NCBI RefSeq assembly: GCF_009931435.1
Contig: NZ_CP043415.1
DNA length: 64,000 bases
Origin: Escherichia coli
GTDB taxonomy: Bacteria > Pseudomonadota > Gammaproteobacteria > Enterobacterales > Enterobacteriaceae
Direction: 5' to 3' (one strand)
The notes beneath the pieces are model-generated. The model searched no databases. It worked only from the letters and a program-made list of their open reading frames with translations, and was not told where the DNA came from. Of this stretch, positions 1,213 to 62,682 are shown in pieces. A program made the translations under genes and the position numbers. How positions within the stretch are numbered: position 1 is the stretch's first letter; each line of letters begins with the position of its first letter.

Positions 1213-4029
1213 TTATTTTTTATGCTGGTAACTCTTTGCTTTCTCTAAAAGCTCTTTCGGACTATCAGCACCAGGTATTCTTTCCTGAGCCAGCTTTTCT
1301 TCATTATATTTATTATTCTGAGTTAATGCTTCTGTTTTATGATGATTTTGTAGTTCAGAATACTGCCCTTTTACAATATTTTCCTCGCCTCGGATGCTGT
1401 TCTGAGTATCTCCGATATTACCTCGATATTCTGTGACCATATTATCAACCTGATGTTTTACATCATTACGGATATTACTGTCCTGCGTTCTTTGCTCAAT
1501 AATGGCCTGATGTCCCTGATGATCAGCAATAATATCCTGGCTGCCACCACCCGAAGGTACGCTCTCCATTCCTTTACCTATATCTCTACGGGATTCACGC
1601 CAGGTGTTATCAACACCAGGCTGTACCTGTTCCTGCACAAAAGACCACGCCATAGCCCGACGGCGTTCTGCAATCTCCGGCGAACTGGTATTTGTCAGAA
1701 TAGCTTCAACATCCTGCGGTGCGTTTTTCATCACATACTGTGCAAACTGTTGCGACAGATCTTCACTCATCTGCCCACTCATACTCTCAGTACGGGATGC
1801 CATTTCAGCATATTCATGGCTGCGGGTCATATTCGTCGTGTACTGGTCGTAACTCTGTTTCGCTGAATTCAGGGCTGCAGACAACTGATCCACACGGGAA
1901 TCAGCATTATTGTCAGTATGGCTGCCGGATTCACTGACTTTGCGGCTGGTAAAGTAATCGCTGGCTTCTTTAAAGTCTTGTGTAGCTCTGGCATCGATAT
2001 CATGACGAGCATCATGGCTGGCCCGTGAACCACTACTGGCTTCATGTGAGTCAAGATCACTGCCATCAATGCTTGCCTTAGCTCCGGCCTGGAGACCAAC
2101 CCCTCCACCGTTACCCAATACACTTATGCCTAAATGCCCTTTAGCATAAGCATCACCGTAAAGGCCAAGCGACGCATTTGTACTTCTCGAGGCCAGTTCT
2201 CTCGTCGCCTGCTCATTACTGATATTATGCGCCTTCGCATAGCTTTCCACTGCACTGCGCATACGGCTGGCCATCATGGAGTCCTGAGCACTCATCGTGC
2301 TGTCAGCACCACCAGTGACAGAGTCACTGCTCCCCCGGTTAGAGCCAAACTGACTGAGTGTGTTCCAGGCACTGGCAATACTGCTGCTGAAACCATGCAG
2401 GGCACTTTCGGCTCTGTTCGACGCCTCCCGGGCCATTTCCTGTTGTGCCGCTGCAATCTGACGCGTTGCATTGATACCGACCGGTAACCGGGACATCGCT
2501 CCGCTTGCATCCATCACCATATTACCGTCACGGGTCTGTGTGGCGGTTGCGCCACTGCCGGTCTGGTACATCATCTGACCAAACGACGTGGTGCTGTTGG
2601 TGCTCCAGCTGAAGCCGTTCACGTTTTCCGTCTGCATGTTGCCGTAGGAGTAATTACCGTCAACCACACTGCCTGCTGCACTGGCCGTTGGACTGATAGA
2701 TGAAGAGGCGAAGTGGCTGTACACGCTGGAAAAACCTGCGCCAAGGCCTTTTACCATCATCCATGACAACGGGGGGATCATGGCTGAAAGATACCCGGCA
2801 GTGGAGGCCAGGTCAGAGTATTTCAGCTGTATCTGAGAGAGTTCAGACAACACGACCGGCGCACCATTCTGTTTCGCATAGAATGTCATGGCACTGTTCA
2901 GAATGGCATACAACAACGGCCAGGTCTGCAGCCACATCAGGGCAAACACATACCCCTTTAATACAGACAATGTCAGCTTGTTAAAGACAGCCGCCAGTAT
3001 CAGGAGCGGGAATATACCAATGGCAATCCCCGTCAGGATAGTCTGGACCATCGGCAGGTTTCGCATAGTTACATGACCAATGGAGACATGTGCCAGACGT
3101 TGTTTCTCCATCGATGACGTGGTGGCCAGACTTACCAGGCTGGCGGTGTCACCGTTACGGGCTGCATTACTGGTGATACCCTCTTTCAGGGCATTCATGG
3201 TGACGTTCTGGCGCATAATCTGGCTGGCAGACTGACTGGAGCCGTAGAAATAACTGTAACTGTCACTGACCAGTTGTCTGAATAACAGGTCCGGGTCCGG
3301 TCTGCCGCCAAATATCTGCTGCACATAATAATGCCAGGTCTTGCCTCCCGTCTTTGTATCGAGATTCAGCCTGTCTTTCAGCGTGACCGACGCATCCTTA
3401 CAAGTTATGAAATTATTATTGTTGTCATAAACGCCCCGTAGCGGGCTGGGGCGGGAAAAAATCAGCGTGTAGGGGTCAGCGGAGGCCATCAGGTCTTCCA
3501 GCGTGTATTTATGATTCAGGTAAATATCACCCAGCACGCAGTTCTGGACGTAGTCCTGGAACAGATTGATGATTTCCGGATTCCGGGACAGGAAATCGGT
3601 GCTTTTCACAATCAGATTCGCCCCGAACAGCATCCCCGTTTTGCTGTAGGTGACGCTGTCCGGTTGCGTGAAGATCATCTCGTAACTGGCCACCATTGCA
3701 TGCCCGATACGGGTCGTCAGTGAAAGTGGCATCGCCAGACCGACCGGCACATTATCCACCCGGTGAACTTTGACCAGGTCACTGTTATCAATAATCTGCA
3801 CCGATGTGCGGACATTAACCAGCAGGCTGATAAGCACAAACACGGCCACCCAGCCCAGCAAATCCATCACGTTGTGCCGCTGTACCCACATTACGGCCAC
3901 CGCGAGAACAGACAATGTGAGCGCAATTTTTTCAATGGAATCCCACGTCCAGGTTCCCATAAAGGCGGCAATGGCGTTCAGGTTATTCCGCAACCACTCA
4001 CCACCGGCAATCACATAAACTTCATTCAC
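1213..4029 (-). CDS. traG: TraG mating-pair stabilisation / entry-exclusion protein
   Basis: 938-aa ORF, same length as F TraG, membrane N-terminal half, located between traH and traS. Confidence 0.9.
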   Translation of the reverse strand: MNEVYVIAGGEWLRNNLNAIAAFMGTWTWDSIEKIALTLSVLAVAVMWVQRHNVMDLLGWVAVFVLISLLVNVRTSVQIIDNSDLVKVHRVDNVPVGLAMPLSLTTRIGHAMVASYEMIFTQPDSVTYSKTGMLFGANLIVKSTDFLSRNPEIINLFQDYVQNCVLGDIYLNHKYTLEDLMASADPYTLIFSRPSPLRGVYDNNNNFITCKDASVTLKDRLNLDTKTGGKTWHYYVQQIFGGRPDPDLLFRQLVSDSYSYFYGSSQSASQIMRQNVTMNALKEGITSNAARNGDTASLVSLATTSSMEKQRLAHVSIGHVTMRNLPMVQTILTGIAIGIFPLLILAAVFNKLTLSVLKGYVFALMWLQTWPLLYAILNSAMTFYAKQNGAPVVLSELSQIQLKYSDLASTAGYLSAMIPPLSWMMVKGLGAGFSSVYSHFASSSISPTASAAGSVVDGNYSYGNMQTENVNGFSWSTNSTTSFGQMMYQTGSGATATQTRDGNMVMDASGAMSRLPVGINATRQIAAAQQEMAREASNRAESALHGFSSSIASAWNTLSQFGSNRGSSDSVTGGADSTMSAQDSMMASRMRSAVESYAKAHNISNEQATRELASRSTNASLGLYGDAYAKGHLGISVLGNGGGVGLQAGAKASIDGSDLDSHEASSGSRASHDARHDIDARATQDFKEASDYFTSRKVSESGSHTDNNADSRVDQLSAALNSAKQSYDQYTTNMTRSHEYAEMASRTESMSGQMSEDLSQQFAQYVMKNAPQDVEAILTNTSSPEIAERRRAMAWSFVQEQVQPGVDNTWRESRRDIGKGMESVPSGGGSQDIIADHQGHQAIIEQRTQDSNIRNDVKHQVDNMVTEYRGNIGDTQNSIRGEENIVKGQYSELQNHHKTEALTQNNKYNEEKLAQERIPGADSPKELLEKAKSYQHKK

Positions 4030-21685: not shown

Positions 21686-22333
21686 CTATCTTCCCAATAT
21701 TTCTTTTACTTTAGCATATAAAGGAAGTATCTTTTCCGTTCTAATCATTTCATCCAACCAGAGATCTCTAGAACTAAATCCATGTCGTTTAAATAATTTC
21801 ATGGTTTTCTTCTTTGATTTAGACACAGTGATGTTCATCTTTGCTGATGAATAATGATGGCTAAACCCTATCAGATATGGCTCAATGCCTACATATTCAT
21901 CAGATAGTACAATTAATTCATTGGTGTATTTAGACACAACAAACGATGACAGATTATCATTTGCTACCCAAATAAATCTCCAGATAAAGAAATAGCCGCA
22001 TGGTGTGATAACACTTTCTATGATCACACTCCATAACATATTATTAAGTAATATGTCATTATTACAATTTACACCATAAACTGAAGAGCATGATTCAATC
22101 TCTGCTCTGGATAACTGTAATTTACATTCCAACGTTAAACTATCAAACCATTCATCACATGAATTAAATGACGATCTGATAAGTTTTTCAAAGCGGTTAT
22201 TTTCCTGAATAAAAGAACCATCCTCGAAGCGGACACATACTGGATATTTTAAAAACGAAATAGCCTCTCCAAGACTATGAGGGAAATGCAATTGACTGAT
22301 GAGTGCTCTTTCTCTACGATCCATCGCACACAT
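21686..22333 (-). CDS. traJ: TraJ transfer activator
   Basis: ORF between traM and traY; start placed at [11 protein letters not shown], preceded by GAGGAGG. ORF track extends to 22411 via an upstream TTG. Confidence 0.8.
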
Positions 22334-22412
22334 AGGAACCTCCTCTAAGGATTCTATGGACAGTCGATGCAGGGAGTGGCTGCTCCCTGCATCGGCGATT
22401 TTCAGTTTCAAT
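22330..22412 (+). ncRNA. finP: FinP antisense RNA, complementary to the traJ leader/RBS
   Basis: Opposite the traJ start: perfect hairpin CGATGCAGGGAG-TGGCTG-CTCCCTGCATCG (22365-22394) followed by a T-rich tract, a stem-loop plus terminator architecture. Ends approximate. Confidence 0.55.
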
Positions 22413-22523
22413 TTTTAACGTGGCATTAACCACATAATCAATATACTAATTATTCTGATTATTGTCATCAGTTTGAACCATAAAAAACCATGATATTTGA
22501 ACAAAGTCAAAATTTATTTCACT

Positions 22524-24357: not shown

Positions 24358-25047
24358 TTATTCAGGCGTCACTGGCGTTTTATTTTCATCTTCATACCTG
24401 ACCATCAGTGCAGCTCTGCCAAATAAATGTTGCTCGTCACTGTTAAGATGAATTTCTTTCATTGCCTCCATATTATCAGTGACCTTATCAAAGACACCGA
24501 GTACTTCATACGCACCCTCGATAACCTGCCCGACAATATCACCTTTATGTGGAACGCGGATTTCGCCAAAATTATTTCCGCACACCAGGCCATTTGTGCA
24601 GACAAAACGAAAAATTCCGGGGTTCATCTGATAACTGGATGAACCATCATGTGAATTAAGCAGGATAATTTCAGGAACTTCCTGCCCGTTAATATGCCCT
24701 TCCCTGCGAAGACGTAACATATGTTTACTGTATTCGCGACGTCCCAAATCACGAACCCGACTCTGACAGGCAAAGAATGGCTGGAAACCTTCATCACGTA
24801 ACTTATTGATGATATTGATTGTTGGAATATACGTATAACGTTCACTCCGGGACTCATGTTTATCACCGGAAAATACCGAAGGCACGAACTGCATTAATTC
24901 ATCATCCGTTAAAGGACGTTCACGGCGGATGGAATTATACCGACCAAAACGGGAAGCTAATCGCATAACAGCTACTCCTTTATGAAAGAATAAATTTAAT
25001 AAAAAATTTTTCCGCTTAATATCATCCCTCCCGATCTCCATTAACAA
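24358..25047 (-). CDS. Conserved leading-region protein of unknown function (possibly DUF932-like); start uncertain
   Basis: 229-aa ORF, first sizeable gene downstream of repeat copy A. Family name is from memory, unverified. Confidence 0.5.
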   Translation of the reverse strand: MLMEIGRDDIKRKNFLLNLFFHKGVAVMRLASRFGRYNSIRRERPLTDDELMQFVPSVFSGDKHESRSERYTYIPTINIINKLRDEGFQPFFACQSRVRDLGRREYSKHMLRLRREGHINGQEVPEIILLNSHDGSSSYQMNPGIFRFVCTNGLVCGNNFGEIRVPHKGDIVGQVIEGAYEVLGVFDKVTDNMEAMKEIHLNSDEQHLFGRAALMVRYEDENKTPVTPE

Positions 25048-25384: not shown

Positions 25385-26005
25385 CTCTCTCTGGTTTTCA
25401 GCCCCCATCATCTGTTGAGTTTCGGGAGCCGCGGTTTTGACGTTTTGCGGGGACCTGCCTTTTGTTCCCTCCGGTATTCACCATCACCTGTTTGAGAACC
25501 TTCGCCGCAAGGGGCATCACTGCCACGGCCGGAAACGACTGTCCGGGGGCAGACCGCAAAAGTTTTTGCCTGCTTTTGGGCAAAAACTTTTGCGGGATGT
25601 GCATTTCACCCCTGGACTGGCGGAGACGGTTGTGGCTGTCTTTGCCCCCGGCGACAGGGGCTTAAACAGGTGAATGGCACCGGACACAACAACGGGCAGG
25701 GACCCGCCGCAACGACGTGAAGCGCGGTTTGCGAAACGGAGTTGCCCCTTACATCCCGGCGGTCTTTTGCCGGGATGTAAGGAGCGCAGGCCACGGCGCG
25801 ACCGGAACGGTCGCTGCAAGCCCGGGGTTTTCACGCATCGGACCGTAGCGACAGCCCGAAACCGCGCCAGCGGGTTTGGCGGAGACTGACAGGTGCGCCA
25901 GCAGCTGCCTGTCGGAGTCGGGCCTGACGACCGGATGCCGCCAGGCAGCCGGGAGCCGAAGGTGCGCCCGGCAGACAGGACAACACTGCAGTAGTCAGAA
26001 TCAGA
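25385..26005 (-). repeat. Leading-region repeat copy A (Frpo/ssi-like structured element)
   Basis: Near-identical to 32760-33408 and related to 36112-36600; internal hairpins GCAAAAGTTTTTGCC..GGCAAAAACTTTTGC, CATCCCGGC..GCCGGGATG, GCGACCG..CGGTCGC. Confidence 0.7.
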
Positions 26006-26280
26006 GCAGGAAGAAAAAGAGAATAATCACAGGGAAGGTGATGTGATTTCTGACAGGCCATAACCAGAGAAGGCGGGGGAAAAGAACGGGCGCCGCAGGC
26101 GCACGTTCATCCCCGTTCCTGAAGGGAAACGACCTTCCTGAAGTCAGGTTGTTCATGCCCGTACAACATCAGCAAGGAGAAAGGGGCTACCGGCGAACCA
26201 GCAGCCCCTTTATAAAGGCGCTTCAGTAGTCAGACCAGCATCAGTCCTGAAAAGGCGGGCCTGCGCCCGCCTCCAGGTTG

Positions 26281-26439
26281 CTACTTACCGGATTCGTAAG
26301 CCATGAAAGCCGCCACCTCCCTGTGTCCGTCTCTGTAACGAATCTCGCACAGCGATTTTCGTGTCAGATAAGTGAATATCAACAGTGTGAGACACACGAT
26401 CAACACACACCAGACAAGGGAACTTCGTGGTAGTTTCAT
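26281..26439 (-). CDS. hok: Hok-family toxin (flmA/hok), 52 aa
   Basis: Reverse-complement translates to [52 protein letters not shown]; below the 60-aa cutoff of the ORF track. Confidence 0.9.
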
Positions 26440-26497
26440 GGCCTTCTTCTCCTTGCGCAAAGCGCGGTAAGAGGCTATCCTGATGTGGACTAGACAT
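26285..26497 (-). CDS. mok: Mok (modulation of killing) overlapping reading frame
   Basis: 70-aa ORF overlapping hok in another frame, as in hok/mok/sok loci. Confidence 0.65.
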
Positions 26498-26535
26498 AGG
26501 GATGCCTCGTGGTGGTTAATGAAAATTAACTTACT
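26465..26535 (+). ncRNA. sok: Sok-like antisense RNA (approximate placement)
   Basis: Placed by the known architecture of hok/sok loci, antisense to the mok start region; not verified by structure. Confidence 0.35.
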
Positions 26536-26718
26536 ACGGGGCTATCTTCTTTCTGCCACACAACACGGCAACAAACCACCTTCACGTCATGAGGCAGAAA
26601 GCCTCAAGCGCCGGGCACATCATAGCCCATATACCTGCACGCTGACCACACTCACTTTCCCTGAAAATAATCCACTCATTCAGACCGTTCACGGGAAATC
26701 CGTGTGATTGTTGCCGCA

Positions 26719-27438
26719 TCACGCTGCCTCCCGGAGTTTGTTCGGCACCATCCACCGCTCCATCTCACGAACAGCATGACCGACCACCCTTGCCGCCATA
26801 CCAGCCTCTGCGATGACCTGCCAGAATGGCATATCCTGCCACTGCCAGCGTTCCATTCCGGCCAGTGACGGAAAACGCTCGCCCCACTGCCAGAACAGGG
26901 TTTCCAGGTCATGCTCTGCCACCCGGTCACTCCAGCGTGCATGCCAGCTTCCGACTGTTTCCGGCGAATGGAATGCCAGTTCGATTTCAGCCTGAGCGAC
27001 CAGCGCCTGGTACGCACGGGCTTTCTGCTCTGCCTCCCTCGCCTGCTGGCGGCTGTACTTCTGCATGACCAGCGCGGATTTATGGCGACTGCGTTCCCTG
27101 ACACGAAACCGCACCGACGGGAACAAGCGCTCTGCTGCATCACCGGGAAGGGGAAGGAGGCAGACCTCGCCCTGTGTTTCAATCAGCACATCGATGGCAT
27201 ACAGCCACTGAAGACGGTTGCCGTGCAGTTCTTCTGCGGTCAGGGACGGCATGAAAAATCGCAGGTCAGACAGCGATATCCTGCGGCTTCCGTTCAGACA
27301 GCGGAAAAACGCCCCCGCATACGGATATTCAGCCAGCGTGTTACCCTGATGGCGGCGTTTTTCGGTCTCCGCCACCGCCCGCCATGCGGCCTGTTGCTCT
27401 GTGCTGAGAGGAACCAGTGCCTGTGAACGTGCGCTCAT
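26719..27438 (-). CDS. psiA: PsiA, plasmid SOS inhibition protein A
   Basis: 239 aa, [78 protein letters not shown]...; start overlaps the psiB stop. Confidence 0.93.
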
Positions 27439-27869
27439 GCCTGACCTCCTTCCGCCATCAGGATATGGATGATGTCACTGACGCTGTACCCCTGCGCGTC
27501 CAGTGACGCCGCCAGTGCCAGTGAATGGCTGACGGCTTCCGGTGCAAACCGCCGCTGTACCTGAACCACCGCAAACGGCTCACCACCGGCATTCACCAGA
27601 ACCAGCACCCAGACCTGAGAGACATCGCCCGGTGAACATAACGCCAGGTGGAAACGTTCGTGGGCAGGCGTGAAACGGACCTGGACGGGGAAAAATCCGC
27701 CAAACTCGCTGCCGTACTCGCCGTTCATCGTCCAGTTGTCCGGCGCATCCAGTTCCCGCATCACGGCGTGTGTCAGCTCACGACGTTCATCACTTCCGGC
27801 TGCCCGGATATCTTCATATTCCTGTGCGCTCATGGTCTGTAATACATTCAGGGTCAGTTCAGTTTTCAT
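27435..27869 (-). CDS. psiB: PsiB, plasmid SOS inhibition protein B (RecA inhibitor)
   Basis: 144 aa from [66 protein letters not shown]..., recognisable as F PsiB. Confidence 0.95.
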
Positions 27870-27923
27870 CACGGTATCTCCCTTGCTGCCGCCCCGTCTC
27901 CGGCGGGGCGGTGTGGTTGTTTA

Positions 27924-31844
<3,921 letters not shown>

Positions 31845-31906
31845 TAGTACCTCCCAAAACGGTAATAATGATTGTCTGCCGGACGTGTCCCCGTCCGGCA
31901 CCTCTC

Positions 31907-32759: not shown

Positions 32760-33408
32760 TGATGTTTTCAGCCCCCATCATCTTTTGAGTTTCGGGAGCC
32801 GCGGTTTTGACGTTTTGCGGGGACCTGCCTTTTGTTCCCTCCGGTATTCACCATCACCTTTTTGAGAACCTTCGCCGCAAGGGGCATCACTGCCACGGAC
32901 GGAAACGACTGTCCGGGGGCAGACCGCAAAAGTTTTTGCCTGCTTTTGGGCAAAAACTTTTGCGGGATGTGCATTTCACCCCTGGACTGGCGGAGACGGT
33001 TGTGGCTGTCTTTGCCCCCGGCGACAGGGGCTTAAACAGGTGAATGGCACCGGACAGAACAACGGGCAGGGACCCGCCGCAACGACGTGAAGCGCGGTTT
33101 GCGAAACGGCGTTGCCCCTTACATCCCGGCGGCCTTTTGCCGGGATGCCAGGAGCGCAGGCCACGGCGCGACAGAGGCGGCGCGACCGGAACGGTCGCTG
33201 CAAGCCCGGGGTTTTCACGCATCGGACCGTAGCGACAGCCCGAAACCGCGCCAGCGGGTTCGGCGGAGACTGGCAGGTGCGCCAGCAGCTGCCTGTCGGA
33301 GTCGGGCCTGACGACCGGATGCCGCCAGGCAGCCGGGAGCCGAAGGTGCGCCCGGCAGACAGGACAACACTGCAGTAGTCAGAATCAGAGCAGCAGGAAA
33401 AAGAAGAA
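32760..33408 (-). repeat. Leading-region repeat copy B (Frpo/ssi-like), immediately upstream of ssb
   Basis: Near-identical to copy A over ~600 bp, with the same hairpins. Confidence 0.7.
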
Positions 33409-35650: not shown

Positions 35651-35881
35651 TCAGTTAAAAGCGCGTTTCAGTTCGAGTGTGCGGAGCACCTGCCCGAAGG
35701 CCGTGTTTTTCATGGCGGGGATGTGTACACCACGCCCCCGGTGAAAACTCCGGGCAATGTGTCGCCCGAAGGCTTTCAGCACGGGGTCAATTTCCGGCGC
35801 GGGGATGTCTTCGCGTCTGAAACGGGGATGACGGCGGGGCTTTACAGCCGCTGCGGAAGGTGAAACAATACTTACTGTCAT
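35651..35881 (-). CDS. Hypothetical small protein
   Basis: 76-aa ORF, first ORF downstream of repeat copy C; weak support. Confidence 0.3.
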   Translation of the reverse strand: MTVSIVSPSAAAVKPRRHPRFRREDIPAPEIDPVLKAFGRHIARSFHRGRGVHIPAMKNTAFGQVLRTLELKRAFN

Positions 35882-36111
35882 AATTTAGCCTCTTATGACG
35901 TTAATTAATGAAACCGTAAAGACTGTTCGTGCAGTCTCTGCGGTGTGGATTAAGCAGGTCCCTGACCTGCTTTTTTCATATCTGCGTCTGACGTTCTCCG
36001 GTGTTTTCCTCCTTCTGTTCCTGCGTTCTCATTACCTGCCAGCCGGATGACTGACAGAACACATAAATGCGTATTGCCGGAGCCTGAAATAAATCCTGAT
36101 TTTTAAAGAAC

Positions 36112-36600
36112 ATCACCCGTTGAGTTTCGGGAGCCGCGGTTTTGACGTTTCGCGGGAACCTGCTGCTGTATTCCCTGTGGTATGAACTTCACCCGTTTGA
36201 GAACCTTCGCCGCAAGGGGCATCACTGCCACGGCCTGACGCACCTGTCCTGGGCAGAACGCAAAATTTTTTACCGGGTTTTGGGTAAAAAATTTTGTGGG
36301 CTGTTCATTTACCCTGGACAGTCAGTGCGGCAGGTTGTGGCTGTATGAGCCCCCGGCGACAGGGACTCATACGGGTGTGTGGCATCCGGCAGGCAATGAG
36401 CAGGGACCCGCCGCAATGACGGAGAGCGCGTGCGCGAAACGGCGTTGCGCCTCACATCCCGGCGGCCTTTTGCCGGGATGCCAGGAGCACAGGCCACGGC
36501 GCGACAAGGGTGGCGCGACCGTTCCGGTCGCTGCAAGCCCGGGGTTTTGCGGCGTCAGGGATGGAAGCCCGCCAGGGCGGAGACAGCTCCGCTGGCTCCG
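36112..36600 (-). repeat. Leading-region repeat copy C (diverged Frpo/ssi-like)
   Basis: Shares TTGAGTTTCGGGAGCCGCGGTTTTGACG, TTGAGAACCTTCGCCGCAAGGGGCATCACTGCCACGG and CCCGGCGGCCTTTTGCCGGGATGCCAGGAGC blocks with copies A and B. Confidence 0.65.
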
Positions 36601-41586: not shown

Positions 41587-41594
41587 ACGATCGG

Positions 41595-43995
41595 GTAGCA
41601 GTGATGCATTACTGCATCACCGCCCCCTAAGAACCGTACGTGCCAGTTTCCCGGCATACGGCTCAAGCCTTTCTAAGCCCACTCTCATGAGCCGGTTTCA
41701 CTACATGTATACCTTTCGCATGAACAAGTGTGTGACACATCGGATGCAGCATAATCAAATTGGAGAGGCAGTTGCTCCCTCCATCGACTCGCCGTATGAT
41801 GTGATGAACCTGCCACTGGGAATCAGATGTAATCCTCTCATCACATATGGGGCATCGGCCCCGCTGCTCAAACCAGATTTGAATGAGCTTTTTCCGTCCT
41901 TGCAGTTTGTGCCGCATTTTGTCTGCACAACGCTCCTCAAAGTACATCTCCCATTGAGGATCGAACGGATTAGCTGCAATTTTAATCGGTTTAAACCGGT
42001 TGATAGGCGTATCGATTGCTTTCCTCAGATTTGCATACTGAGGCTTACCGTTGGCAAGGAGTTCTCCGGTAGCCGTGGAGAAAGACCAGTTTCGGGCACC
42101 TTGTTGATGGAAATATCTTTTCCGAATCCACTTCTTTCCCTTATTGGGATGACGCCGAACAGCCCAACGCCATAAAGCCAGCCAGATCTCATTGTCAACT
42201 TTGTTAAATGCGACCTTGGCCACAATGTGTTGATGGTAAGCCGCCCACCCTTTGATCATTGGGTTCAGCATGCGGATCAACGTAAGCTGATCCATAGCTT
42301 TGTTGCCTTTGATTACAGCGCGTATTTTCTTTAAAAAGGAACTGACATTGGCTTTAGAGGGTTTGATCAGCATCTTACCGCCATATTTGCGAATGTTCTG
42401 TCCAAGAAAATCAAATCCTTCCTCGATATGTGTGATTTTCGTCTTTTCCGGAGAAAGCATTAATCCTCTTTCAGCCATAAACCGCCTGACGACGGGTAAT
42501 ACCTGAGACTCAAGAAGTTCTTTTGACTCTCCAGTGATAATAAAATCATCAGCATATCTCACATAGTTAACTTTCGGGTTAACCAATCGTCCCTTGACTG
42601 TTCTCTTTTTAAACTCCGAAGCAAGAAGCGCCTCCAGTCCATCCAGAGCAATGTTAGCCAGTACAGGAGAAATTATTCCCCCCTGAGGAGTTCCTGAATT
42701 TACAGGGAATAACTGCCCCTTTTCCCTGTAACCCGCTTTAAGCCACTTTGTCAGGATTTGTCTGTCTGTTGAGGTGTTATCGATTAGCCATTGATGAGAT
42801 ATATTGTCAAAGCATCCCCGTATATCCCCCTCAAGCACCCATTCAGCGGATGTTTTCTGCGCAAGAACACAGAAGCACTGTGCTATCGCATCTGCAGTAG
42901 ACCTTCCAGTCCGAAAGCCGAAGGATCTCTGGTCAGCAGTGACTTCAGCAACGGGCTCAAGAGCCAGCAAATACAACGCCTGCATCGCCCGATCCTTCAT
43001 AGTGGGTATCCCAAGGGGACGAGACTTCCCATTTGACTTAGGTATATAAACCCGCTTAAGTGGCTGTGGTTTGTAACCACGCCGTTTCAGCAGGTTAATA
43101 GCAAGAAATTTAACCTCCGGGGAAGACCATGTCTGACCATCAACCCCAGGAGTACGTTTCCCGCTATTCTCTGTAACTCGTCTGACAGCAACTGCTCTGC
43201 CACTAAACGAGTGAGTCAGTATCCATTGCAAGGATTTGACCTTGCCATGTTTACCTTCTCGTGTTGCCTTTACGATACGCGCTTGCAGTCTCCGCACTTC
43301 CCGATAGCACTGACGCCAGTTGATACTGTGCCAGGAGTCACCGTTAAGTAAGGACGCACCTTTACAGGTTGTAGCCTGCTCAGTCATCTGCTTTTCCTTT
43401 CTGGAAGATTACTCAAACTCTCTCGTAATGAAAGACCCAGTGGAAGTCTGCCCGCTTTCGCGTAGGGTAATGTTGCCGGGCTCAACCCTTATCCGGTCCA
43501 TTACAGACTGGCATTCGCTTTTTCCACCTTCTTTTACCCGCACCGCCAACAGTATCCCTTGCGGTTAACCTGCCTCACGAGGCAGCGATACGGGCTTACC
43601 ATGTTCCACCTGAATAACAACAGTAGGTTAGACTCTGCTCACAACACCGGTGGTTTATTGTCCGTGTACCCCTAGCAAACAGAGGAGTAACCAACCACAT
43701 ACCTTTTGGTTCAAGCCTGTCAGCATCTTTGGCTTGTTCTGGTTAACGACGCTTCAGCAGTTCACATATGTTAGTCATGCTACCGAGCCTAGACCTCCTC
43801 CGCCTGATGCTGGCAGATTACATGTAACCTCACGGTTTCATGCGATCCGAAGATCCGGTTTCATTGTCCTGACAGCTTCACACCCCACCGTTACCAGTGA
43901 CGCATGTGTCAGTAGGCTACTGATGACGGAACATCAGGTTCCCTGACGGAATCGAACTCCGCTGGAACAATTATTCAGGCGACTTCATGTCGCAC
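41595..43995 (-). mobile_element. Group II intron (~2.4 kb) with intron-encoded RT-maturase-HNH protein
   Basis: Minus-strand 5' end GTGCGACATG at 43995; domain V GAGCCGTATGCCGGGAAACTGGCACGTACGGTTC at 41664-41631 overlapping the ORF stop; domain VI-like hairpin follows. 3' boundary approximate. Confidence 0.8.
41663..43387 (-). CDS. Group II intron-encoded protein (reverse transcriptase / maturase / HNH endonuclease)
   Basis: 574 aa; RT motif YVRYADDFII, maturase X region, C-terminal HNH block (CPICDERI…HHIIRRVDGGSNCLSNLIMLHPMCHTLVH). Confidence 0.92.
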   Translation of the reverse strand: MTEQATTCKGASLLNGDSWHSINWRQCYREVRRLQARIVKATREGKHGKVKSLQWILTHSFSGRAVAVRRVTENSGKRTPGVDGQTWSSPEVKFLAINLLKRRGYKPQPLKRVYIPKSNGKSRPLGIPTMKDRAMQALYLLALEPVAEVTADQRSFGFRTGRSTADAIAQCFCVLAQKTSAEWVLEGDIRGCFDNISHQWLIDNTSTDRQILTKWLKAGYREKGQLFPVNSGTPQGGIISPVLANIALDGLEALLASEFKKRTVKGRLVNPKVNYVRYADDFIITGESKELLESQVLPVVRRFMAERGLMLSPEKTKITHIEEGFDFLGQNIRKYGGKMLIKPSKANVSSFLKKIRAVIKGNKAMDQLTLIRMLNPMIKGWAAYHQHIVAKVAFNKVDNEIWLALWRWAVRRHPNKGKKWIRKRYFHQQGARNWSFSTATGELLANGKPQYANLRKAIDTPINRFKPIKIAANPFDPQWEMYFEERCADKMRHKLQGRKKLIQIWFEQRGRCPICDERITSDSQWQVHHIIRRVDGGSNCLSNLIMLHPMCHTLVHAKGIHVVKPAHESGLRKA

Positions 43996-50593: not shown

Positions 50594-50920
50594 ATGACTA
50601 AAAATACTCGTTTTTCCCCCGAAGTCCGTCAACGCGCAGTTCGTATGGTTCTGGAAAGTCAGGGCGAATATGACTCACAGTGGGCGGCAATTTGTTCCAT
50701 TGCCCCAAAGATTGGCTGTACGCCGGAGACTCTGCGTGTCTGGGTTCGCCAGCATGAGCGGGATACCGGGGGCGGTGATGGTGGGCTCACCAGCGCTGAA
50801 CGTCAGCGTCTGAAAGAGCTGGAACGTGAAAATCGTGAACTGCGCTGCAGTAACGATATCCTTCGCCAGGCTTCCGCTTATTTTGCGAAGGCGGAGTTCG
50901 ACCGCCTCTGGAAAAAATGA
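50594..50920 (+). CDS. IS3-family transposase OrfA
   Basis: 108 aa, HTH and leucine zipper, [41 protein letters not shown]…. Confidence 0.9.
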
Positions 50921-51807
50921 TGCCACTGCTGGATAAGCTGCGTGAGCAGTACGGGGTCAGACCGGTATGCAGCGAACTGCATATTGCCCCGTCAACGTAT
51001 TACCATTGTCAGCAACAGCGACATCATCCGGATAAACGCAGTGCCCGTGCGCAGCACGATGACTGGCTGAAGAAAGAGATACAGCGCGTATACGATGAAA
51101 ATCACCAGGTATACGGTGTGCGTAAAGTCTGGCGTCAGTTGTTACGGGAAGGTATCAGAGTGGCCAGATGCACTGTGGCACGTCTCATGGCAGTTATGGG
51201 ACTTGCCGGTGTTCTCCGGGGTAAAAAGGTCCGCACTACCGTCAGCCGGAAAGCCGTTGCCGCATGCGACCGCGTAAACCGTCAGTTCGTGGCAGAACGT
51301 CCAGACCAGTTGTGGGTGGCTGATTTTACCTGGGTAAGCACATGGCAGGGCTTCGTTTATGTGGCGTTCATCATTGATGTGTTCGCCGGATACATCGTGG
51401 GATGGCAGGTCTCATCATCCATGGAAACAACATTCGTGCTGGATGCACTGGAGCAGGCGTTGTGGGCCCGTCGGCCGTCCGGCACAATCCATCACAGTGA
51501 TAAAGGTTCTCAGTATGTATCGCTGGCCTACACGCAGCGGCTTAAGGAAGCCGGATTACTGGCATCAACAGGGAGTACTGGCGACTCGTATGACAACGCG
51601 ATGGCGGAGAGCATCAATGGTCTTTACAAAGCGGAGGTAATACACCGTAAGAGCTGGAAAAACCGGACAGAAGTGGAACTGGCCACACTAACGTGGGTGG
51701 ACTGGTATAACAATCGACGATTGCTGGGAAGGCTGGGCCATACTCCTCCGGCAGAAGCAGAAAAAGCTTATTATGCTTCCATCGGAAACAATGATCTGGC
51801 AGCCTGA
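50917..51807 (+). CDS. IS3-family transposase OrfB (DDE integrase domain)
   Basis: 296 aa, overlaps the orfA 3' end. Confidence 0.9.
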
Positions 51808-61642: not shown

Positions 61643-62682
61643 CTGAAAGAGCTGGAGCGAGAAAATCGTGAACTGCGCCGCAGTAACGATATCCTTCGCC
61701 AGGCTTCCGCTTATTTTGCGAAGGCGGAGTTCGACCGCCTCTGGAAAAAATGATGCCACTGCTGGATAAGCTGCGTGAGCAGTACGGGGTCAGACCGGTA
61801 TGCAGCGAACTGCATATTGCCCCGTCAACGTATTACCATTGTCAGCAACAGCGACATCATCCGGATAAACGCAGTGCCCGTGCGCAGCACGATGACTGGC
61901 TGAAGAAAGAGATACAGCGCGTATACGATGAAAATCACCAGGTATACGGTGTGCGTAAAGTCTGGCGTCAGTTGTTACGGGAAGGTATCAGAGTGGCCAG
62001 ATGCACTGTGGCACGTCTCATGGCAGTTATGGGACTTGCCGGTGTTCTCCGGGGTAAAAAGGTCCGCACTACCGTCAGCCGGAAAGCCGTTGCCGCATGC
62101 GACCGCGTAAACCGTCAGTTCGTGGCAGAACGTCCAGACCAGTTGTGGGTGGCTGATTTTACCTGGGTAAGCACATGGCAGGGCTTCGTTTATGTGGCGT
62201 TCATCATTGATGTGTTCGCCGGATACATCGTGGGATGGCAGGTCTCATCATCCATGGAAACAACATTCGTGCTGGATGCACTGGAGCAGGCGTTGTGGGC
62301 CCGTCGGCCGTCCGGCACAATCCATCACAGTGATAAAGGTTCTCAGTATGTATCGCTGGCCTACACGCAGCGGCTTAAGGAAGCCGGATTACTGGCATCA
62401 ACAGGAAGTACAGGCGACTCGTATGACAACGCGATGGCGGAGAGCATCAATGGTCTTTACAAAGCGGAGGTAATACACCGTAAGAGCTGGAAAAACCGTG
62501 CAGAAGTGGAACTGGCCACACTAACGTGGGTGGACTGGTATAACAATCGACGATTGCTGGAAAGGCTGGGCCATACTCCTCCGGCAGAAGCAGAAAAAGC
62601 TTATTATGCTTCCATCGGAAATAATGATCTGGCAGCCTGAGTTCACAGATAAAATACTCTCCAGGAAACCCGGGGCGGTTCA
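61643..62682 (+). mobile_element. IS629/IS1203-like element, 5'-truncated copy (about IS positions 271-1310)
   Basis: Near-identical to the complete copy from the orfA 3' part through the right inverted repeat; left inverted repeat and orfA 5' end absent. Confidence 0.85.
61750..62640 (+). CDS. IS3-family transposase OrfB (second copy)
   Basis: 296 aa, differs from copy 1 at about 3 residues. Confidence 0.85.

Follow-up and report, generated by a model that had tools for sequence, protein, structure and literature searches.

The hok/sok module is the prototype of type I toxin-antitoxin systems. Its relatives srnB (F), pndA (R483/R16) and hokA-E (E. coli) belong to the same family and share its regulatory logic (PMC4147584). 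Described loci close to the one analysed here are parB of plasmid R1 (GenBank X05813; NZ_KY749247, 57341-57911), the corresponding locus of R100 (NC_002134, 47086-47658) and flmA/flmB/flmC of F (NC_002483, 62700-63267). Post-segregational killing, plasmid stabilisation and RNase III cleavage of the Sok-hok duplex have been established for the R1 sequence, to which the present locus is identical (PMC9841398, PMC4147584), and PMC10899753 reports single-cell evidence for such killing.

An earlier note on the 64-kb stretch of DNA studied here (the window) had proposed a hok/mok/sok-type toxin-antitoxin locus at 26281-26540. All elements of a type I system were found there, present and intact. The proposed interval does fall inside the locus, but the full locus spans 26181-26648, about 470 bp rather than 260 bp, and the hok promoter, tac, part of ucb, the 3' UTR with fbi and the terminator all lie outside the original limits. 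We consider it about 97% probable that the region is an intact parB-type hok/mok/sok type I toxin-antitoxin locus with the same sequence as that of R1, carried in the leading region of a conjugative plasmid of IncF type. As such it is already known: it is the textbook plasmid-addiction module at its usual site next to psiA.

Comparison with R1, R100 and F

Direct comparison of positions 26150-26720 with plasmid R1 (NZ_KY749247) gave 570 identical bases out of 571, which places the assignment of the locus far beyond chance. The segment that starts with the hok promoter and ends with the downstream terminator is 100% identical to R1 parB, and Hok, Mok, Sok, tac, fbi, ucb and dcb are all the same. 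The sole mismatch, at 26674 (T in the window, C in R1), falls before the hok promoter begins, in the stretch separating the hok -35 box from the psiA stop. We know of no functional element at this position.

The alignment to R1 hok/sok and F flmA/flmB/flmC that had been suggested as a check found Hok intact, with 99.8% identity to R1 and 93.0% to F flm over 26150-26720; identity to R100 was 97.2%. The R100 locus encodes identical Hok and Mok proteins, has an identical Sok region and the same neighbours, and differs by 14 substitutions and a 2-nt insertion, mostly in two places, ahead of the promoter and within the part of the 3' UTR that separates the Tr hairpin from fbi. F flm has the same architecture and position as the window locus, with identical tac, fbi, hok Shine-Dalgarno sequence and Sok promoter boxes and a mostly identical hok gene. 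It differs by 29 mismatches and 5 gaps, which are concentrated in Sok and the mok-start region: its Sok hairpin is 5 nt shorter, and its Sok leader and mok N-terminus are different from those of the window. F FlmA also carries Tyr39, where the window Hok has His39, as in R1. Given the differences in the leader and the mok N-terminus, Sok and FlmB should be allele-specific.

A megablast search of plasmid records with 26150-26720 as query returned at least 5000 records with the locus, about 80% of them conjugative. The matching records were mostly conjugative IncF plasmids from Escherichia, Klebsiella, Salmonella and Shigella. Some records held partial copies, with four matches covering 44-73% of the locus.

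Hok and Mok reading frames

Two overlapping minus-strand frames make up the coding part of the locus:

26281-26439, minus strand: hok toxin gene, 52 aa plus stop, ATG at mRNA nt 174
26285-26497, minus strand: mok frame, 70 aa plus stop, ATG at mRNA nt 116, overlapping hok

The 52-aa Hok had been placed on the minus strand at 26281-26439, and the list of open reading frames of at least 20 aa returned exactly these coordinates, with an ATG at 26439, codons from 26439 to 26284 and a stop at 26283-26281. The open reading frame enclosing this ATG runs over 26281-26460. Rather than the disrupted Hok frame that had been named as evidence against the locus, we found an intact frame identical to R1 Hok. 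It matched the Pfam profile PF01848 (HOK_GEF) with E = 1.2e-21 and 76.5 bits against a cut-off of 22, and it encodes a small (about 50 aa), hydrophobic toxin of the Hok/Gef family. The exact protein sequence is catalogued in UniRef as 'Protein Hok, HOK_ECOLX' and occurs on at least 1000 contigs.

The overlapping 70-aa mok frame was likewise recovered as an ATG-initiated frame at 26285-26497 and matched the Pfam family DUF5431 (Mok/FlmC) with E = 2.6e-41. Its codons run from 26497 to 26288 and its stop occupies 26287-26285, so that mok starts 58 nt upstream of hok and ends 4 nt before the hok stop, in a register that overlaps hok. The exact sequence is catalogued as 'Protein FlmC homolog, FLMC2_ECOLX / modulator of post-segregation killing', again on at least 1000 contigs. 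By analogy with R1, to which the locus is identical, translation of hok would be coupled to that of mok. The mok ATG and overlapping frame were retained in 11 of 11 homologues while the amino-acid sequence of Mok drifted; Hok was retained in all, at lengths of 48-53 aa. Neither tblastn nor blastn found a second Hok-like frame (e.g. srnB) in the 64-kb window.

Anatomy of the hok mRNA

The promoter of hok and mok matches the consensus at 9 of 12 positions; the scan gave three sites, compared with 0.4 expected in shuffled sequences. The -10 box ends 6 nt before +1. Following the Gerdes-laboratory literature, we take the full-length hok mRNA to be 398 nt and its processed form 361 nt. For the numbering of the mRNA, 12 positions named by Le Rhun et al. 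2022 (PMC9841398) were matched to the sequence, and all 12 (G4, C5, T6, G64, A70, G71, C72, C74, G105, A106, G345 and C358) fitted, fixing +1 at 26612. The parts of the transcript are as follows:

26619-26648, minus strand: hok/mok promoter, -35 TGGTCA at 26648-26643, 18-nt spacer, -10 TATGAT at 26624-26619
26215-26612, minus strand: predicted full-length hok mRNA, +1 to +398, with +1 a G at 26612
26606-26612, minus strand: tac, GGCGCUU, mRNA nt 1-7, pairing with nt 390-396 in the minimum free energy (MFE) structure
26536-26543, minus strand: ucb or anti-Shine-Dalgarno box, mRNA nt about 70-77, pairing with the mok Shine-Dalgarno sequence in the closed form
26505-26508, minus strand: mok Shine-Dalgarno sequence GAGG, mRNA nt 105-108
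26471-26480, minus strand: dcb, mRNA nt 133-142, GGAUAGCCUC, complementary to the mok Shine-Dalgarno region
26449-26454, minus strand: putative hok Shine-Dalgarno sequence AAGGAG, mRNA nt 159-164, read from the sequence
26254-26271, minus strand: GC-rich stem-loop, mRNA nt 342-359
26229-26247, minus strand: 3' UTR segment, nt about 366-384, pairing with the mok start/Sok target at nt 118-134
26217-26223, minus strand: fbi, AAGCGCC, mRNA nt 390-396, pairing with tac in the MFE structure
26181-26210, minus strand: hairpin and U-tract 3' of fbi, mRNA nt 403-432, located by folding

Several of these elements correspond to residues discussed for R1. A70, G71, C72 and C74 are described for ucb, with C74 opposite A106, and G105 and A106 are named in the mok Shine-Dalgarno sequence (PMC9841398), which is invariant in our homologue alignment. 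The dcb element overlaps the Sok -10 box on the opposite strand, and a Sok-promoter mutation falls in dcb (PMC9841398). AAGGAG at 26449-26454 probably serves as the hok Shine-Dalgarno sequence, its core being invariant in the alignment. The GC-rich stem-loop, which was obtained by folding and agrees with the G345 and C358 pairs in PMC9841398, would give the processed, translatable hok mRNA its protective 3' end, near nt 361 (26252). Pairing between the 3' UTR segment and the mok start agrees with the claim made in the title of Thisted et al. 1994. The hairpin at 26181-26210 probably ends the primary hok transcript as an intrinsic terminator.

The Sok antisense RNA

The antisense partner lies on the opposite strand:

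26453-26481, plus strand: Sok promoter, -35 TTGCGC at 26453-26458, 17-nt spacer, -10 TATCCT at 26476-26481
26487-26550 (about; each end uncertain by ~5 nt), plus strand: predicted Sok RNA with leader, hairpin and tail

The Sok promoter matches the sigma-70 consensus at just 7 of 12 positions and was missed by a scan with a threshold of 9 of 12; it was found by reading the plus strand together with conservation. The predicted RNA, which we take to be 64 nt long, consists of an unpaired 5' leader of ~13 nt (26487-26499), a 48-nt hairpin (26500-26547) and a U-rich tail from 26548, and folds with -26.5 kcal/mol (z = -6.4). On the opposite strand, the leader covers the mok AUG and the hairpin covers the mok Shine-Dalgarno sequence. 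Sok would count among the cis-encoded antisense RNAs with a promoter and terminator of their own, covering both the mok Shine-Dalgarno sequence and the start codon. PMC3562002 gives the Sok target as 67 nt, nt 65-131. The Sok 5' end that this implies, at 26482, abuts the -10 box and is implausible; we took it as a numbering offset.

The earlier note had expected Sok on the plus strand near 26465-26535. The strand was right, and the RNA lies ~20 nt further to the right: the proposed span begins in the promoter spacer and stops within the 3' arm of the Sok hairpin. Absence of a conserved sok promoter and terminator had been listed as a ground for rejecting the locus. The promoter, hairpin and U-tail proved identical to those of R1, the pattern TTGCnn, 17 nt, (T/C)AT(C/A)CT was present in 11 of 11 homologues, and the fold of leader, hairpin and tail was present in all of them.

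RNA folding and conservation

Nucleotides 1-398 of the hok mRNA fold with an MFE of -175.9 kcal/mol (z = -8.25 against shuffled sequences). The structure prediction that had been proposed for the fbi and tac elements yielded both the end-pairing of tac with fbi and a hidden mok ribosome-binding site. In both the MFE and the centroid structure, nt 1-7 pair with 390-396 and nt 9-10 with 387-388. The mok Shine-Dalgarno region (nt 103-109) pairs with nt 71-77, the MFE partners of its successive nucleotides being 77, 76, 75, none, 73, 72 and 71. G118 pairs with nt 384, and the mok start/Sok target (nt 118-134) pairs with the 3' UTR. On their own, the first 30 nt adopt a local hairpin that includes tac, as described for the metastable co-transcriptional structure.

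Forcing the open tac/ucb stem cost +12.8 kcal/mol in the 398-nt RNA and +1.7 kcal/mol in the 361-nt RNA. The unconstrained MFE structure of the 361-nt RNA differs from the published open form, which lies 1.7 kcal/mol higher. These energies are consistent with a model in which processing triggers refolding, although the open form is not the MFE structure.

For conservation, we aligned the window with R100, F and 8 further plasmid homologues, down to about 80% identity, and scored pair counts on the MFE structure of the window in 10 distinct homologues. Paired cells reached 91.1%, compared with 36-47% when the partners were slid. Pairs with double changes numbered 14, against 8.1 +/- 1.7 in shuffles (0 of 500 reached 14), and never exceeded 5 after sliding. 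Compensatory changes were clear in the 12-28/48-64 stem, a hok-internal stem and the 3' GC stem, the last with four pairs carrying compensatory double changes. The putative terminator hairpin (nt 403-432) was 100% paired, with 1 double and 5 single-sided changes. The tac and fbi elements were invariant, with 100% of cells paired across the 10 homologues; since neither arm varies, their pairing is backed by conservation and energy and not by covariation. Even plasmid homologues of 80-84% identity retained all elements.

Annotation of the locus

The Rfam family RF01794 matched 26613-26437 on the minus strand over the full model (1-157), with 88.9 bits against a gathering threshold of 59 and E = 1.6e-18. 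Although the family is named 'sok antitoxin', its consensus has tac at the start and the hok AUG at the end. A match to RF01794 therefore marks the leader of the hok mRNA, on the strand opposite Sok, and the family name is misleading as to strand; taken at face value, the match would misplace Sok. Matches in the region to the Rfam families Betaproteobacteria-1, L25 leader and FGF1 IRES (E 0.16-0.92) were dismissed as chance. RefSeq/PGAP calls a Hok of 41 aa from a GTG start (Val12), which is a start-site choice in annotation and not a defect of the sequence. Mok usually goes without annotation in public records.

Genomic context

The locus sits directly downstream of psiA (26719-27438, minus strand; Pfam PsiA, 1.3e-37), which is preceded by psiB (27435-27872, minus strand). 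The order psiB-psiA-hok is the same in R1, R100, F and one 100%-identical record. The earlier note had located the module between psiA and the first copy of a repeat, and this is borne out by the coordinates of psiA and of the repeat (25394-26020). Its neighbourhood holds psiA, psiB, ssb and hairpin-forming repeats, and the traM/oriT end of the leading region is ~3.5 kb away. The origin of transfer should lie near the traM/traJ end, at about 22.5-23 kb.

The leading region has three copies of this ~630-bp repeat, at 25394-26020, 32764-33404 and 36099-36548. The first two copies share 98-99% identity with each other and 67-92% with the third. Since the leading genes lie on the minus strand relative to the traM/traJ end at 22.5-23 kb, the plus strand of the first copy should be the transferred strand. 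As single-stranded DNA this copy forms an imperfect hairpin of ~330 nt (about 25419-25750), and the fold of the whole 651-nt region has a dG of -180.9 (z = -11.4). An inverted-repeat scan of this neighbouring repeat found none, though folding gave the long imperfect hairpin. The repeat resembles Frpo-type single-strand promoters/ssi sites, which belong to F-like leading regions.

Other features of the window were recorded alongside. Within 27924-31901, an IS21-family element is inserted in a ParB/Spo0J-like leading-region gene; the element carries istA (28795-29817, Pfam rve) and istB (29814-30596, Pfam IstB_IS21, 1e-111), and the halves of the split gene are the minus-strand frames 27924-28742 and 30606-31901. 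The same gene is unbroken (1959 bp) in F and R1. A DUF932 gene (24358-25047, minus strand) gives a 229-aa frame from TTG here, whereas F, R1 and R100 have it intact, with 273 aa; no CDS is called for the region in the 100%-identical reference record, and the gene may be a frameshifted pseudogene in the window. A group II intron occupies 41590-43938 on the minus strand, an implied length of about 2.35 kb, with Rfam matches to D1-D4-7 at 43792-43938 (133 bits) and to domain V/VI at 41590-41666 (66 bits); it presumably carries a reverse-transcriptase frame. Two ALIL pseudoknots (the IS3-family frameshift signal) lie on the plus strand at 50875-50991 and 61708-61824, in direct orientation, 10,833 bp apart and identical in their Rfam alignments. 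The pair suggests two copies of one insertion sequence flanking a segment of ~10 kb, which is possibly a composite transposon. Three further plasmid antisense RNAs that are already known, FinP with the traJ 5' UTR (22327-22435), AS-traG (3225-3310) and AS-pc01 (antisense to pHK01_035; 35876-35975), scored above their Rfam gathering thresholds.

Proposed mechanism

The model draws on the R1 literature (PMC9841398, PMC4147584, PMC8167048). Its anchors in the window are things observed here, namely the sequence identity, open reading frames, promoters, folds, energy switch and conservation with covariation; from the same R1 work we infer the transcript ends, transcription, processing, RNase III cleavage and killing. 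A moderately strong promoter would give a stable hok mRNA of ~400 nt. During its synthesis, a local hairpin would sequester tac at the 5' end. Once the RNA is complete, tac would pair with fbi and ucb would hide the mok ribosome-binding site, so that neither ribosomes nor Sok could bind. Slow 3' trimming to the GC-rich hairpin would then remove fbi, after which the 5' end would re-pair with ucb and the mok start region would become exposed.

In plasmid-bearing cells, short, unstable Sok would be made constantly from the opposite strand. Its 5' leader would bind the exposed mok region and block translation of mok, and hence of the coupled hok, and the Sok-hok duplex would be cut by RNase III. 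Upon plasmid loss Sok would decay first, and the stored hok mRNA would be translated into the 52-aa membrane toxin, which would kill the cell through damage to the inner membrane.

Alternative readings

Two of the alternatives concern what kind of locus this is. It could be an F-type flmA/flmB/flmC locus rather than R1 hok/sok, given that F flm occupies the same position directly after psiA and that the Mok of the window is catalogued as an 'FlmC homolog'. With identity of 93.0% to F against 99.8% to R1, and with His39 as in R1 where FlmA has Tyr, we regard this as very improbable; R1-type and F-type loci differ in allele and not in kind, forming one family. The locus could also be a decayed, non-functional relic like many chromosomal copies of hok/sok. 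Partial copies do occur in some plasmid records, and the Hok of RefSeq is shortened to 41 aa. The copy in the window has two intact reading frames and two intact promoters, with tac, fbi and every stem likewise undamaged, and from promoter to terminator not one base departs from the R1 locus that was studied experimentally, so that decay, too, is hardly credible. A further reading would make the antitoxin a small plus-strand protein. There is a plus-strand frame of 74 aa at 26483-26707 with an internal ATG at 26519, and CP057923.1 annotates a 62-aa 'protein sok' CDS from that ATG (plus strand, 26519-26707). In the F-type (flm) and pEG356 copies an in-frame stop interrupts this frame, and in 5 homologues of greater divergence a frameshift turns it into an unrelated peptide. 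Those very homologues retain Hok, the mok start and the Sok RNA fold, and Sok is defined as an RNA in the literature (PMC9841398, PMC4147584). The non-conservation of the frame among homologues refutes the protein reading, to which we give next to no credence.

A different alternative accepts the hok/sok mechanism and questions its use: the main selective role might be establishment, plasmid competition or phage exclusion instead of vegetative post-segregational killing. A site in the leading region, ~3.5 kb from the traM/oriT end, enters the recipient first. One preprint (bioRxiv 10.1101/2025.08.07.668861) finds hok/Sok in leading regions, suggests a role in early establishment and cites T4 exclusion and plasmid competition; T4 exclusion is also covered in PMC4147584. 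Post-segregational killing is nevertheless the experimentally established function of this exact sequence (PMC9841398, PMC4147584). Establishment and killing roles are moreover compatible, and the window sequence does not tell them apart. We consider a main role other than vegetative killing unlikely, if worth keeping in mind. Slightly more doubtful is the narrower proposal that the module works chiefly when the plasmid enters a cell, for instance killing recipients in which the plasmid is destroyed or not established. If true, such entry-stage killing would select against recipient defences. The idea of a role at entry has already been floated by others for leading-region toxin-antitoxin genes, and it has no support specific to the window.

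Implications

An intact, R1-type hok/mok/sok locus remains by far the best account of the region. It illustrates how open reading frame cut-offs and automatic pipelines mishandle hok/sok loci, and the practical gain of the analysis is a set of exact coordinates for all regulatory parts; beyond correct annotation its importance is small. For the plasmid itself, the locus identifies the stretch as an IncF leading region like those of R1 and R100. It also leads one to expect strong plasmid addiction, which would be relevant if the plasmid has resistance or virulence cargo.
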